From positions 4,224,001-4,288,000 of the forward strand of contig OZ243961.1 in NCBI GenBank assembly GCA_965214605.1: DNA of 64,000 bases. Direction: 5' to 3'. Shown piece by piece: positions 26,320-59,054 of the stretch (position 1 is the stretch's first letter; every line of letters begins with the position of its first letter). The position numbers and the translations under genes were made by a program. The notes beneath the pieces were generated by a model. That model saw nothing but the letters and a program-made list of their open reading frames with translations, was not told the DNA's origin and searched no databases. This DNA is from an uncultured Candidatus Binatia bacterium. Its GTDB lineage: Bacteria; Desulfobacterota; Binatia; Bin18.

Positions 26320-26481
26320 CTTCGGCATGCCTTCCTCGCGGCAGCGGCGGCCACTCGTGGGCTCGCTGTCGTGACGCGGAACACGGGCGGGTTCCGCAAC
26401 GAAGAGAGATGTGGCTTCCCCTGTACAGTTGCTGTCGTGACGCGGAACACGGGCGGGTTCCGCAACACCGGCGTCGCGACG
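26320..26481 (+). pseudogene. C-terminal remnant of a VapC/PIN toxin
   Basis: AFLAAAAATRGLAVVTRNTGGFRN...TGVAT matches the PIN IAATA..GL.VVTRN..DF..TGV pattern. Confidence 0.7.
26365..26466. repeat. 36-bp direct repeat / 30-bp unique insert / 36-bp repeat (CRISPR-like single unit inside the vapC remnant)
   Basis: GCTGTCGTGACGCGGAACACGGGCGGGTTCCGCAAC identical at 26365-26400 and 26431-26466. Confidence 0.95.
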
Positions 26482-26745
26482 GGCGGTATGAAGGCGCAAG
26501 AGGCCGCCGGCGCCGCGAGTTGCAAAGGAGTCACCCCTAATTCGCCGGCCAGGGCCGCGACGACGGGAAGGAACGCCGCCGTCGCGGCCGTATTGCCGGT
26601 GAGCTCGGTCAAATAAATGACGAGCGCCACAAGACCCAACACCAAAACGACGGCGGGATAGACGCCCAGCGCCCGCAGGCCGCCGCCCAGCCACTGGGCA
26701 AGACCGGTCGAGCCGATGGCCGCGGCCGGACTGAGGCCGCCGGAC
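26467..26745 (-). pseudogene. Fragment of an SLC13/DASS anion transporter
   Basis: TGLAQWL...LTELTGNTA...P...ASCAF.PPVATP. Confidence 0.75.
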
Positions 26746-27393
26746 AAACAGGGAGACGCTGGTGACGGTTGACGGAGGAGAGATCGTCTACGAAATCGAT
26801 GACGACCTGTGTTCGGGTGCTGGCATACGATGGTCGAACGACGAGTTGACCTCTGCACTCAAGGGGCGGGTTGCAGCCGTGCTCTTCGATGACGAGGGTA
26901 AGGCGAACATCGAAGAAATCCTCGTCGCGTCGGCGGAGACGGACTTTGCTCGTGACGGACTACGTCGCGTGCTGGAGGATCCCGAGGAGATTGAGGAATG
27001 GAGGGTGGGAGAAGCGATTGCGGAAACCTATCTGACAGAGCATCGGTCATGCAGCTTCCCATGGCCGGACGGACGCGACGAGAGAAAGAGCGGGTCCAGC
27101 CTGCTGGGTGCCGATTTGGTCGGATTCGGGATCGCTGATGAAGGCGATTGCCTTGCATTCGGCGAAGTGAAGACATCTAGTGATCGCAGCCATCCCCCGG
27201 GAGCGATGTACGGTCGCACGGGGCTGAAGCGGCAGCTGGAAGATCTGCGGGACGACGAAGCCGTCCGCGACGATCTCCTGAGGTATCTCGGTCATCGTGC
27301 CGGGTCGGCTCCGTGGCGAGCGCGGTTCGAGTGTGCGGGAAGCAGGTATCTGCGGAACAAATCCGACATTCAACAGCCGCGGCCGCTGACTGG

Positions 27394-27711
27394 CTACGCG
27401 GTGCGCCGCAACAGCTCCTCTAAGGCCCGGCCTTGGCGTTCGAGCGCCTGGCCGATCTGGCGCACGGCCTGCCCCAACGCGGCGCCCTGTTGTTCGAGCG
27501 CGTGGCCCAGCTTGTCAATTTCACGATCGCGCCGCCGCCCGGCCTGCTGCATCTGGCGCAGGCCCCACACAAGACAGGCCAAGCCGCCGGCGCTGACGAG
27601 GAGCTGCACCCCCGCTATCACCACGCCGGCCTGGTTGACCCAGCTCGTGCGATTGGCGGCCTGCAAGGCGGCGACCGCCTCCCGCGCTAATTGGACAAGT
27701 TCCGGCTCCAT
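27394..27711 (-). CDS. Small membrane-anchored coiled-coil protein
   Basis: AGGAGGAGG RBS, TM segment VVIAGVQLLVSAGGLACLVWGL, repeats GHALEQQGAAL/GQALERQGRAL. Confidence 0.7.
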   Translation of the reverse strand: MEPELVQLAREAVAALQAANRTSWVNQAGVVIAGVQLLVSAGGLACLVWGLRQMQQAGRRRDREIDKLGHALEQQGAALGQAVRQIGQALERQGRALEELLRRTA

Positions 27712-27825
27712 CGTCGTCCTCCTCCTGATGCGCGCTGCCAGCGGGGCGCCGTGCGTAGCCGGCTGGCGGCCCGGCCGCGGCAAAAGGTGTGGCAAACCGT
27801 TGGAGGAGCGTGATACGCCGCGCGG

Positions 27826-28044
27826 TCAGGCCGCCGGCTGGCGCCCGGCGATCGACTCGCGCAAGCCCTCCAGCAGCCCTTCGAGGTGGGCCATGCGTTC
27901 ACGCAGCTCGGCTTGCCCCCGCTCAAGAGCGGCTAAGCGCGTCTCGACAGCCCGCAGGCGGGTCGCGACGCCGCGCTGCCCAGCGAGAATCACCCCAGCG
28001 AGGGCGACGCCTACGGCGAAAATCCCCATCAGTTCCGGGCTCAT
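27826..28044 (-). CDS. Small N-terminal TM + coiled-coil protein
   Basis: AAGGAG RBS; MSPELMGIFAVGVALAGVIL then LRERMAHLEGLLEGLR heptads. Confidence 0.7.
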   Translation of the reverse strand: MSPELMGIFAVGVALAGVILAGQRGVATRLRAVETRLAALERGQAELRERMAHLEGLLEGLRESIAGRQPAA

Positions 28045-56757: not shown

Positions 56758-57861
56758 CTACTTAGCGCGAGCCGCCGTGGGCGGCTCGTCCACCGAGACG
56801 CTGGCGGCCTCTTCCCGAAAGTAGGGCATGACATGCTGAGAGAATAACTCCATTGAGTGAAAGATCTTGTCTTTTGGCATGCCTCCCCAGTCAAACATGA
56901 CCAGGAGGTGGCGGATGCCGGCCGCGTGGTATGTTTTGATTTTTTCGAGACACCGGGCAGGATCGCCAAAAATAGACAGGGCATCAAGTTGTTCGATGGT
57001 GGCTGTGGCCAGAAATTGACCGACCTTAGCAAACGCCTCATACCCACCGCCGGTGCCGGGTTTGGCCCAGACTTTGGTTGAGCTGCCGAGTTTGCGCTTC
57101 ATTCCGGCCTCAGCCTCCCGCAGGGCCTGCTCGGTGGTGTCAGCCAGGTGAGTCCAAAACACGTGCGGTAAGTCGTCGCTTGGCTGGCCGTGACCAGATG
57201 CCCGAAAGGTATGCCGATAGCGATCTAGCTGCGCTGCTATTTTTTCGGGAGACGGGCTCGAAGCAAACGGCGCGGCGCAGAAGGCATAGCCTTTTTTCGC
57301 AATCTCTTCGGCGGAGCCGGGCGAGGCTGCAGCCACCCAAATCGGGGGACACGGTTGCTGTACGGGACGGGGCAGGAGGGCGATGTCTTGACACTGGTAA
57401 TACTGACCGGCGTACGAGAACTGTTGCTGGGTCCACAGTCCGTGAATCACGTCGAGGCATTCCCAGAAGCGGGCTTTGGCGGTTTCCATGGGAATGCGAA
57501 AGCCGGTAAATTCGTGCGGCTGGTAGCCTCGGCCTGCCCCAAAACACACCCGTCCGTGGCTGAGCAGGTCTAGGGCGGCCATATCTTCGGCCAGACGCAC
57601 AGGATCGTTGACCGGTAGGATACTCACCCCGACTCCCAGGCGCAGACGTGTGGTGCGCTGAGAGAGAGCGGCCAGCAGCATCTGAGGAGATGGAAACACC
57701 CGCTGACTGGCCTGAAAATGGTGCTCGCCAACCCAAAACCCCTCATAGCCGAGTGCCTCGGCATACTCCGCCTCGTCCAACACCTCGTGATAGAACTGCT
57801 CGTGCGAGCGTAGATTGGCATAATTATCGCCCAAAGTCAGAATCGAAAAACGCATACTCAC
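56758..57861 (-). CDS. LLM-class flavin-dependent oxidoreductase
   Basis: GEHHF, DPVRLAED, GRGY, PRPVQQP. Confidence 0.92.
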   Translation of the reverse strand: MSMRFSILTLGDNYANLRSHEQFYHEVLDEAEYAEALGYEGFWVGEHHFQASQRVFPSPQMLLAALSQRTTRLRLGVGVSILPVNDPVRLAEDMAALDLLSHGRVCFGAGRGYQPHEFTGFRIPMETAKARFWECLDVIHGLWTQQQFSYAGQYYQCQDIALLPRPVQQPCPPIWVAAASPGSAEEIAKKGYAFCAAPFASSPSPEKIAAQLDRYRHTFRASGHGQPSDDLPHVFWTHLADTTEQALREAEAGMKRKLGSSTKVWAKPGTGGGYEAFAKVGQFLATATIEQLDALSIFGDPARCLEKIKTYHAAGIRHLLVMFDWGGMPKDKIFHSMELFSQHVMPYFREEAASVSVDEPPTAARAK

Positions 57862-57899
57862 CTCCGGCTTTTCTCAGCCATGATGGTGCCCCCTATCCG

Positions 57900-58658
57900 T
57901 CAGGGCCCCACTTTCAGGTCGCTTCCGCCCGCGACCGGTAGGGTAACTCCGGTGATAAAGCCGGCCGCATCAGAGGCAAGAAACGCTACAGCATCGCCAA
58001 TATCTTGGGGCTGGCCAAGGCGGCCCATCGGGATTGTCTTGGCCACGGCGGTTTTTTGTGCTTCGCTCAACGAGCTGGCCATCATCGGTGTTTCAATTGG
58101 GCCGGGGGCAACGGCGTTGACCCGGATGCCCAGCGGGGCAAGTTCATAAGCGAGGTCTCTGGTCAGGGCGACGACCCCTGCCTTTGAGGCGGCATAGGGC
58201 ACATGGGGTACGGTATAGTGCAGGGCGGCGATGGAGGCGATATTCACAATCACGCCGCTGCCTTGCTTTTCCATTGCTTGGGCAACCCGGTGACAGCACA
58301 GAAACACGCCTTTGAGGTTCACCTCTAAGACGCGATCCCAGTCGGCCTCGGTCTGGTCGCGCATACGCTTAAGCACAACGATACCGGCATTGTTGACTAA
58401 AATGTCAACGCGTCCAAAACGATCAAGCGTTTGTCTGACTAGTCGGTCTACCGCGTTGGCCTGGGTGACATCGGTTTGGACGCCGAGTGCCTGTACGCCC
58501 AACGATTCAAGGTTGGCCACGGTCGGGGGAATACGCTCCCGGACCGCTTCAGCCACAACAATGGAGGCTCCCGCCCGAGCCAGGCTGAGCGCAACACCCT
58601 GGCCAATACCCTGTACGCCACCGGTGACAATTGCGATCCGTCCATCAAGTTGTGTCAT
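57900..58658 (-). CDS. SDR oxidoreductase (FabG-like)
   Basis: TGGVQGIG, NNAG, YAASK. Confidence 0.95.
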   Translation of the reverse strand: MTQLDGRIAIVTGGVQGIGQGVALSLARAGASIVVAEAVRERIPPTVANLESLGVQALGVQTDVTQANAVDRLVRQTLDRFGRVDILVNNAGIVVLKRMRDQTEADWDRVLEVNLKGVFLCCHRVAQAMEKQGSGVIVNIASIAALHYTVPHVPYAASKAGVVALTRDLAYELAPLGIRVNAVAPGPIETPMMASSLSEAQKTAVAKTIPMGRLGQPQDIGDAVAFLASDAAGFITGVTLPVAGGSDLKVGP

Positions 58659-58948
58659 ACGCCCTCCCTATGATCTATAGACCCGTGCTCCTGACGGCGG
58701 CTCAGTTATGGTGGCTCATCGAACCAATCGAATAGAATTACGCCGCTCAACCCCGCCCAACATAAAGCGGTGCCAGGCATTGCATCGGTCGGCTCAGTGG
58801 CCGCATGGTCTCTAACGAGGCCGGGAAATATGCGTTCTCCTGCTGACGCCACCAGATACGACAGGAGGACACTGACAAAGCCCGCCGCTATTGGTCGGTC
58901 GTATTGGCACCCCTCCCGTGCCGCACGCCCCCGTCAAACAGCGGCACC

Positions 58949-59054
58949 GAGCCAGTCGGCATCACACTGCTGATAGGCTACTCCAAGGTTGAGCGGATGA
59001 CGTTGGCAAAGTGCGCGGGAGCCAGTCGGCATCACACTACTGATAGGCTACTCC
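58949..59054. repeat. 36-bp direct repeat / 34-bp unique insert / 36-bp repeat
   Basis: GAGCCAGTCGGCATCACACT[G/A]CTGATAGGCTACTCC at 58949-58984 and 59019-59054, one mismatch. Confidence 0.95.

Follow-up and report, generated by a model that had tools for sequence, protein, structure and literature searches.

In the chromosome of an uncultured Candidatus Binatia bacterium, a stretch of 64,000 nucleotides (C1:4224001-4288000, hereafter the window) carries two short structures, locus 1 and locus 2, in each of which a 36-bp direct duplication brackets an insert of the size of a spacer in a CRISPR array. The genome amounts to 4.37 Mb in 9 contigs, 4.31 Mb of it in C1, and has a completeness score of 99.99%. 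The first-pass annotation, made from the sequence alone, had described a direct repeat of exactly 36 bp around a unique insert at both loci. Both structures are present (Table 1): at locus 1 the two copies are identical and recur with a period of 66 bp, and at locus 2 they agree at 35 of 36 positions and recur with a period of 70 bp. Neither pair can be extended, the bases beyond both ends being mismatched, the inserts are unrelated to the repeats that flank them, and a comparison confirmed the earlier statement that the two repeats have nothing in common with one another. Scanning the whole window for direct repeats recurring within 150 bp returned four families, namely loci 1 and 2, a pair at 44804/44862 and a 20-bp pair at 1270/1304. 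By our own estimate, exact 20-mers recurring within 130 bp are expected about 5e-4 times; an exact 36-mer that returns within 150 bp exceeds chance by far in a genome of 4.4 Mb. An Rfam search of the window gave no match to CRISPR-DR or to any other family.

Table 1. Parts of the two repeat-insert structures, in window coordinates
Feature	Position	Strand	Remarks
Locus 1, first target copy (pseudo-repeat)	26365-26400	-	exact 36-bp repeat; reverse complement resembles the II-C repeat
Locus 1, insert (putative ectopic spacer)	26401-26430	-	30 bp, copied from the host chromosome
Locus 1, second target copy	26431-26466	-	100% identical to 26365-26400
Locus 2, first target copy	58949-58984	.	inside the remnant of a PhyH-like dioxygenase gene; single copy in relatives
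Locus 2, insert (putative ectopic spacer)	58985-59018	.	34 bp; no second copy in the genome; absent from 4/4 relatives
Locus 2, second target copy	59019-59054	.	97% identical; one mismatch, A for G at repeat position 21

Both repeats look like the ordinary local chromosomal sequence for which they had first been taken. The repeat of locus 2 is coding sequence of a gene for a PhyH-like dioxygenase, next to a gene for a short-chain dehydrogenase. This gene is intact in a relative of the same genus, G003 (283 amino acids, L021:927-1778), and is a pseudogene here (58670-59563, minus strand), split by a 70-bp insertion that shifts the frame. An in-frame TAG stands in both copies of the repeat, at a place where the relatives align a proline codon; we therefore read this stop as older than the insertion. 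The repeat of locus 1 is part of a minus-strand frame whose product weakly resembles CitMHS and Na/sulfate symporter transporters at their C-terminus (E ~1e-5, under the Pfam cut-offs), and the 66 bp of locus 1 leave this transporter-like frame open.

The host is richly equipped for spacer acquisition. The Cas1 profile (PF01867) matches at 8 places on C1, with five full-length genes and two fragments; none of these places is in the window, so that the initial remark that the window holds no cas genes stands as far as Cas1 is concerned. Family searches typed five CRISPR-Cas systems, all of them outside the window. The type II-C system, at C1:0.53 Mb, encodes Cas9 (1080 amino acids), Cas1 (314 amino acids) and Cas2 (118 amino acids), with no match to Csn2 or Cas4 among the five open reading frames scanned in its neighbourhood. 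Type I-E comprises Cas3, Cse1, Cas1e and Cas2e; type I-D comprises Cas1d, Cas2, Cas6, Cas3', Csc1, Csc2 and Csc3; type III-B comprises Cas1, Cas2, a CARF protein, Cmr1/6, Cmr5, Cmr3 and Cas10; and type V-C consists of Cas12c (1414 amino acids; NF033950, 1074 bits) and a lone Cas1. The cas1 and cas2 genes of the II-C, I-E, I-D and III-B systems are uninterrupted open frames, as is cas1 of the V-C system. An integrase encoded elsewhere in the genome had been postulated, and such intact cas1-cas2 pairs exist, among them that of the II-C system with its 36-bp repeats and 30-bp spacers.

Each native array has a geometry of its own. The II-C array contains 17 identical 36-bp repeats with a period of 66 bp, and its 16 spacers measure 30 bp (11 spacers), 31 bp (two) and 29, 37 and 47 bp (one each). 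The I-E array has 97 repeats of 28 bp and a period of 61 bp, 94 of its 96 spacers being 33 bp long, and a 5-repeat I-E mini-array lies at C1:2534815. The I-D arrays (76 and 16 repeats of 37 bp) have spacers of 34-41 bp and a period of 71-78 bp, and the III-B array (25 repeats of 37 bp) has spacers of 39-52 bp and a period of 76-89 bp. Locus 1, with 36 bp duplicated around 30 bp, has exactly the geometry of the II-C array. At locus 2 the duplication equals the II-C repeat in length, and the 34-bp insert falls within the I-D range, at its edge.

The two structures of the window are members of a larger population. An exact-seed scan of the genome for isolated, non-tandem two-copy repeats (length at least 20 bp, spacer at least 15 bp) gave 44 pairs, and a mismatch-tolerant scan over all periods of 38-130 bp gave 49 isolated, non-tandem pairs, after removal of 10 of the 59 single-hit clusters that were tandem or whose match equalled or exceeded the period in length. 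As the first-pass annotation had anticipated, the spectrum is not flat and peaks at geometries of the host arrays: the period is 58-80 bp in 42 of the 49 pairs (8 at 61 bp and 6 at 73 bp), with only 7 outside this band (binomial p = 4e-19 versus a flat spectrum). Eight loci have I-E geometry, that is, 28-bp duplications around an insert of 33 bp in seven of them and 32 bp in the eighth. About 19 further loci, with periods of 69-79 bp and duplications of up to 38 bp, have the geometry of an I-D/III-B-type class, in which duplications measure 35-38 bp and inserts 34-44 bp. At two other ectopic loci, C1:916264 and C1:1509172, stretches of 35-36 bp are duplicated around inserts of 35-40 bp, which implies that the I-D/III-B-type integrases would not always duplicate exactly 37 bp. 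The repeat sequence differs at every isolated locus.

The raw counts of 44 and 49 still include four entries that we do not regard as candidates. The period-72 pairs at C1:1510594 and C1:1511817 lie inside a repetitive gene, close to further copies of their 'inserts'; C4:3868 duplicates C1:3068860 as its reverse complement and represents the same event; and C1:176444 is a two-repeat locus that carries the native V-C repeat.

The inserts point to the host chromosome as a donor. When the inserts of the 44 pairs were compared with the genome by BLAST, 11 had a second, spacer-length copy elsewhere. That of locus 1 is identical over 30 of 30 positions to C1:1462672-1462643, 2.8 Mb away; the similarity ends at the boundaries of the insert, and the flanks of the source are unrelated to the locus 1 repeat. 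The idea that the inserts came from elsewhere is thus upheld for locus 1. Inserts of the I-E class match distant sites over 33/33, 32/32, 32/33, 33/34 and, with one mismatch, 33/33 positions, and those of the longer class over 35-38 nt, within the range of I-D spacers. Ten of the 11 source sites lie in open frames of 149-1380 codons, the exception being a source in the I-E leader, and the insertion sites are mostly outside long frames. Genes would thus be the donors and the repeat structures the recipients. In the ectopic I-E class 5 of 8 spacers are self-derived, and among 100 spacers of the native I-E arrays 3 are (Fisher p = 2.6e-5), an excess that fits ectopic loci that are invisible to interference and at which self-spacers would be tolerated.

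Two spacers of the I-E class, at C1:125255 and C1:1399850, are copied from CRISPR loci themselves: one reproduces part of the I-E leader, 26-57 nt from the first repeat, and the source of the other is the CARF gene that neighbours the III-B cas1. In E. coli, spacer acquisition is hot next to the CRISPR array itself.

Empty alleles were sought in 30 relatives, 7 of them from the same genus. At locus 2, all four genomes that hold the region (G001, G003, G004 and G005, of the same genus) have a single 36-bp site and lack exactly 70 bp, the length of one repeat copy plus the insert. Two other loci behave alike: at C1:4089123 (28+33) all three relatives that can be aligned have the empty site, with 61, 61 and 65 bp missing, and at C1:2103855 the missing length is 73 bp in 4 of 4 homologous copies from three relatives. 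Empty alleles, for which the first-pass annotation had proposed to look, thus exist at locus 2.

We then consider the sites that were hit. Each target was scored by its in-register identity to a native repeat, in the better orientation, against 20,000 random genome positions. All eight I-E-class sites reach 12-17 identities out of 28 versus a null mean of 8.55 (standard deviation 2.06; combined p = 3e-8). The CCCG at repeat positions 7-10 is matched in 6, 8, 8 and 6 of these eight sites, and each base of the GGA at positions 20-22 agrees in 6 of 8; we read these positions as the two arms of the inverted repeat of the I-E repeat. The locus 1 target shares 18 of 36 positions with the II-C repeat in the minus orientation (p = 0.0027), including, by our reading of the alignment, 7 of the first 8 bases, and it is this end of the II-C repeat that adjoins the AT-rich presumed leader of the native array. 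The locus 2 target is a strong hairpin (z = -3.3).

The mismatch-tolerant scan was also applied to DNA sampled from relatives that differ in their Cas1 content, a Cas1 search having found none in G003, one in G002 and many in G006 and G007. It returned 2 pairs in 395 kb of G003, with periods of 110 and 40 bp, none in 400 kb of G002, and 3 pairs in 400 kb of G007, with periods of 61, 68 and 72 bp; the source genome itself holds 2-6 pairs per 400-kb block, with a mean of 4.1. In this small sample, the comparison goes the way that spacer integration by Cas1 predicts.

We propose that both structures of the window arose by off-target ('neo-CRISPR') spacer integration by the host's own Cas1-Cas2 integrases, a reading to which we assign a probability of about 0.86. 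The acting enzyme, the order of the chemical steps and the non-functionality of the loci we infer; what was computed here comprises the structures, their match to array geometries, the self-derived spacers, the empty alleles and the resemblance of the targets to native repeats. Cas1-Cas2 loaded with a host-derived prespacer of spacer size would attack a chromosomal pseudo-repeat through two transesterifications, one on each strand and one integrase-specific repeat length apart; gap filling would then duplicate the stretch between the cuts and leave a duplicated target, a spacer and again the duplicated target. At locus 1, the type II-C module would have acted on a pseudo-repeat resembling the leader-proximal end of its own repeat and inserted a spacer taken from the host chromosome. 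At locus 2, an event of the same kind would have broken a PhyH-like gene that was already damaged.

Judged by duplication length, insert length and target similarity, the integrase of locus 1 was most likely that of the II-C system. At locus 2, an I-D/III-B-type integrase, to which the insert length points, appears slightly ahead of the II-C integrase, to which the duplication length points. The earlier suggestion of one molecular ruler used twice is not established: locus 1 fits the II-C system, and the 36+34 arrangement of locus 2 fits the I-D/III-B type at least as well, so that the shared length of 36 bp may be partly coincidence. In the best explanation, loci 1 and 2 are two of about 30 scars across the genome for which no fewer than three co-resident adaptation modules are responsible. 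We lean, by a narrow balance, towards regarding this genome and at least one Cas1-rich relative as a natural and largely unselected acquisition record of several integrases (I-E, II-C and I-D/III-B-type). Since the pseudo-repeats share no more than 36-50% of their positions with the native repeats, the ectopic loci are probably inert.

Several points weigh against this proposal. None of the native repeats is significantly matched by the locus 2 target, which scores at best 13/36, against the II-C repeat (p = 0.17), and the 34-bp insert of this locus lies outside the lengths usual among II-C spacers (29-31 bp for 14 of the 16). The search for a source of this insert gave none: it has no second copy in the genome and no exact match in metagenome, genome and viral collections, from which records of this genome or a near-identical one were possibly excluded; for locus 2 the claim that the inserts came from elsewhere is thus left without a donor. 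A shared protospacer-adjacent motif (PAM), which the first-pass annotation had proposed to look for, did not emerge: no common motif flanks the 5 I-E-class protospacers or the single II-C one, nor the protospacers of 5 self-matching native spacers, and the first and last bases of the 96 native 33-bp I-E spacers reveal no PAM-derived base. At locus 1, no empty allele was found among the 30 relatives, in all of which the region of the site is unaligned, and the empty-site pattern has no match in metagenome contigs; in total, the surroundings of the site are unalignable in relatives at 10 loci out of 13 tested, locus 1 among them. The control in relatives covers about 0.4 Mb from each of three genomes only. 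Finally, both structures are known from the assembly alone. Of 12 sequencing runs listed, 11, from 5 studies and with no RNA run among them, hold at least part of the stretch. The four runs compared with the window are Logan k-mer contigs, by which an exact 36-bp repeat cannot be bridged; one X4 k-mer contig aligns up to 26364 and then continues into unlike sequence, and no joint skipping 66 bp is among the joints listed.

The strongest competitor, to which we grant a small probability, is the repair of staggered double-strand breaks or the insertion of templated filler, by end joining or template switching and without Cas1-Cas2, the CRISPR-like lengths having then arisen by chance. Such repair can copy short stretches from elsewhere, and it would accommodate both a locus 2 target without significant similarity to native repeats and the failure to find a PAM. 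It does not, however, predict lengths that match each of the host arrays (28+33, 36+30, and 35-38 with 34-44), an in-register similarity of the targets to the I-E and II-C repeats, or the absence of pairs in the 58-80 band from the sampled relatives with no Cas1 or one. Replication slippage or tandem duplication, with later divergence of the middle part, is the commonest origin of nearby direct repeats, and the clusters discarded from the mismatch-tolerant scan as tandem, or with a match at least as long as the period (10/59), are a reminder of it. The whole unit should then repeat, however; the inserts instead have no similarity to their flanks and reproduce distant loci exactly, and the relatives lack the repeat and the insert as a single block. 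With the exact source of the locus 1 insert 2.8 Mb away, we rejected slippage and rank it as the least probable of the explanations considered.

Genuine small CRISPR arrays, whether decayed relics or horizontally transferred mini-arrays, would also combine repeats and spacers, and the genome does contain some, for example at C1:3644454, beside a cas1 fragment, and the I-E mini-array at C1:2534815. At locus 2, however, the repeat occurs once, as ordinary coding sequence, in each of four relatives; at locus 1 it is part of the transporter-like frame and its spacer is host DNA; and no two isolated loci share a repeat, nor did Rfam recognize one in the window. We consider this origin very unlikely, and a functional array was rejected on the same coding sequence shared with relatives, the same Rfam result and the low identity (36-50%) to native repeats. 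Equally improbable, in our judgement, is that mis-assembly created the duplications and inserts. The k-mer contigs do break at the 36-bp repeat, but an artefact would not copy exactly spacer-length pieces of distant genes between duplications of array length, would not pick repeat-like sites and would not produce similar pairs in an independently assembled Cas1-rich relative; a contig of 4.31 Mb in a genome that is 99.99% complete also speaks against it. Off-target integration by Cas1-Cas2 remains our preferred explanation.

Transposons and casposons likewise leave a direct duplication on both sides of the inserted DNA, through a staggered cut and gap repair. Unlike them, the present inserts, of 30-44 bp, are copies of host genes and too short for a transposase (terminal inverted repeats were not searched for), and the duplications of 28-38 bp are far longer than typical target-site duplications. 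Neo-CRISPR loci have reportedly been obtained in E. coli with overproduced Cas1-Cas2 of type I-E (Nivala, Shipman and Church 2018, Nat Microbiol 3:310), a study said by a passage citing it to offer only 'circumstantial evidence' in two other species. The E. coli loci share with ours a spacer-sized insert within a repeat-length duplication at non-CRISPR sites, with 28+33 in the I-E class; unlike them, the loci described here are fixed in a wild genome, number dozens and have several geometries, including that of a Cas9 (II-C) system. For isolated arrays three origins have reportedly been proposed, off-target acquisition among them (Shmakov et al. 2020, CRISPR J 3:535). C1:711165 and C1:1706198, where a non-native repeat carries 2-3 spacers, could represent such arrays at an early stage, whereas most loci here hold a single spacer, would fall below the thresholds of array finders and have plain genic or intergenic repeats.

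In vitro, the off-target sites of the purified Cas1-Cas2 of Pyrococcus furiosus (PMC6698737) and of the type II-A Cas1-Cas2 of Streptococcus thermophilus (PMC6895254) resemble the repeat or the leader-repeat junction, and the second cut is set by a ruler. Cuts one repeat length apart and repeat-like targets are common to those reactions and the present loci; the plasmid assays gave many half-sites, and the insertions seen here are in contrast completed, repaired and inherited. Ectopic spacer acquisition in S. thermophilus takes place inside CRISPR arrays, away from the leader-proximal repeat (PMC7999890), and at genuine array repeats, unlike the non-CRISPR targets of this genome. In our literature search, neither II-C events nor a wild genome bearing dozens of such scars from several systems came up, a weak negative, since supplements may list such cases. 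The phenomenon is thus already known, and its natural, multi-system form in a wild genome appears, on this limited evidence, to be new.

Off-target integration is a hidden cost of CRISPR adaptation and a proposed route to new arrays. It has reportedly been demonstrated so far in vitro and in E. coli that overproduces the proteins, wild genomes having yielded no more than circumstantial hints. About 30 datable scars in one wild genome would make countable the miss rate of the integrases, the sequence features that attract them, the hits on genes (locus 2 lying in a broken dioxygenase gene), the capture of self-DNA before selection and the growth into arrays. If the genome is indeed such an acquisition record, the target sites would display the intrinsic specificity of each integrase in vivo, the excess of self-spacers would directly measure the autoimmune purging of self-spacers from real arrays, C1:711165 and C1:1706198 would be new arrays caught at birth, and natural ectopic events could, apparently for the first time, be attributed to a Cas9 (II-C) system. 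There is also a warning for annotation: two-repeat 'mini-arrays' in CRISPR-rich genomes may be scars and not immune loci.

A number of further structures were noted along the way. In the window, 44804-44889 holds a 28-bp direct repeat with 3 mismatches (89%) around a 30-bp insert (period 58). Its 44804 copy agrees with the native I-E repeat, by our count, at 13 of 28 positions in register, the first 5 bases included, and the structure may be an older, decayed I-E-type event or the relic of another system. Two places in the genome have 3-4 repeat copies: C1:711165-711386, with non-native repeats of ~29 bp and inserts of 33 and 31 bp, and C1:1706198-1706361, with non-native repeats of ~30 bp and inserts of 35 and 39 bp. 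Both may be ectopic sites that were struck more than once; one spacer of the latter partly matches C1:4260291-4260318 (28 nt, 96%), which is 36291-36318 of the window.

The V-C array beside Cas12c (C1:612872-613539) has repeats of ~24 nt and spacers of 19-20 nt, and one of its repeat-spacer units recurs head to tail about 11 times. Without a partner, V-C Cas1 integrates short spacers. Events with the V-C geometry (about 24+19-20) were considered and set aside, the few short pairs, such as C1:4136090 (20+20) and C1:3704221 (20+19), being too few and too short. At C1:3644454-3644630, a 34-nt CRISPR-type repeat occurs three times, some 700 bp away from a cas1 fragment (3643612-3643752), and together they look like a decayed sixth CRISPR locus. 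Related genomes contain matches, up to 43 in each, to a short dispersed element of paired ~31-nt units at C1:916770-916860 (L037 1107-1195), which resembles a REP-type repeat family of the genus. Around locus 1, synteny with the same-genus genomes ends near 26305, ~60 bp to the left of the structure, and the stretch from there onward may be a strain-specific island. Between about 26305 and 28550 it contains the truncated transporter-like frame and a 553-codon open frame without a Pfam match, its second half apparently out of frame, followed at 28554-31970 by an open frame of 1138 amino acids.

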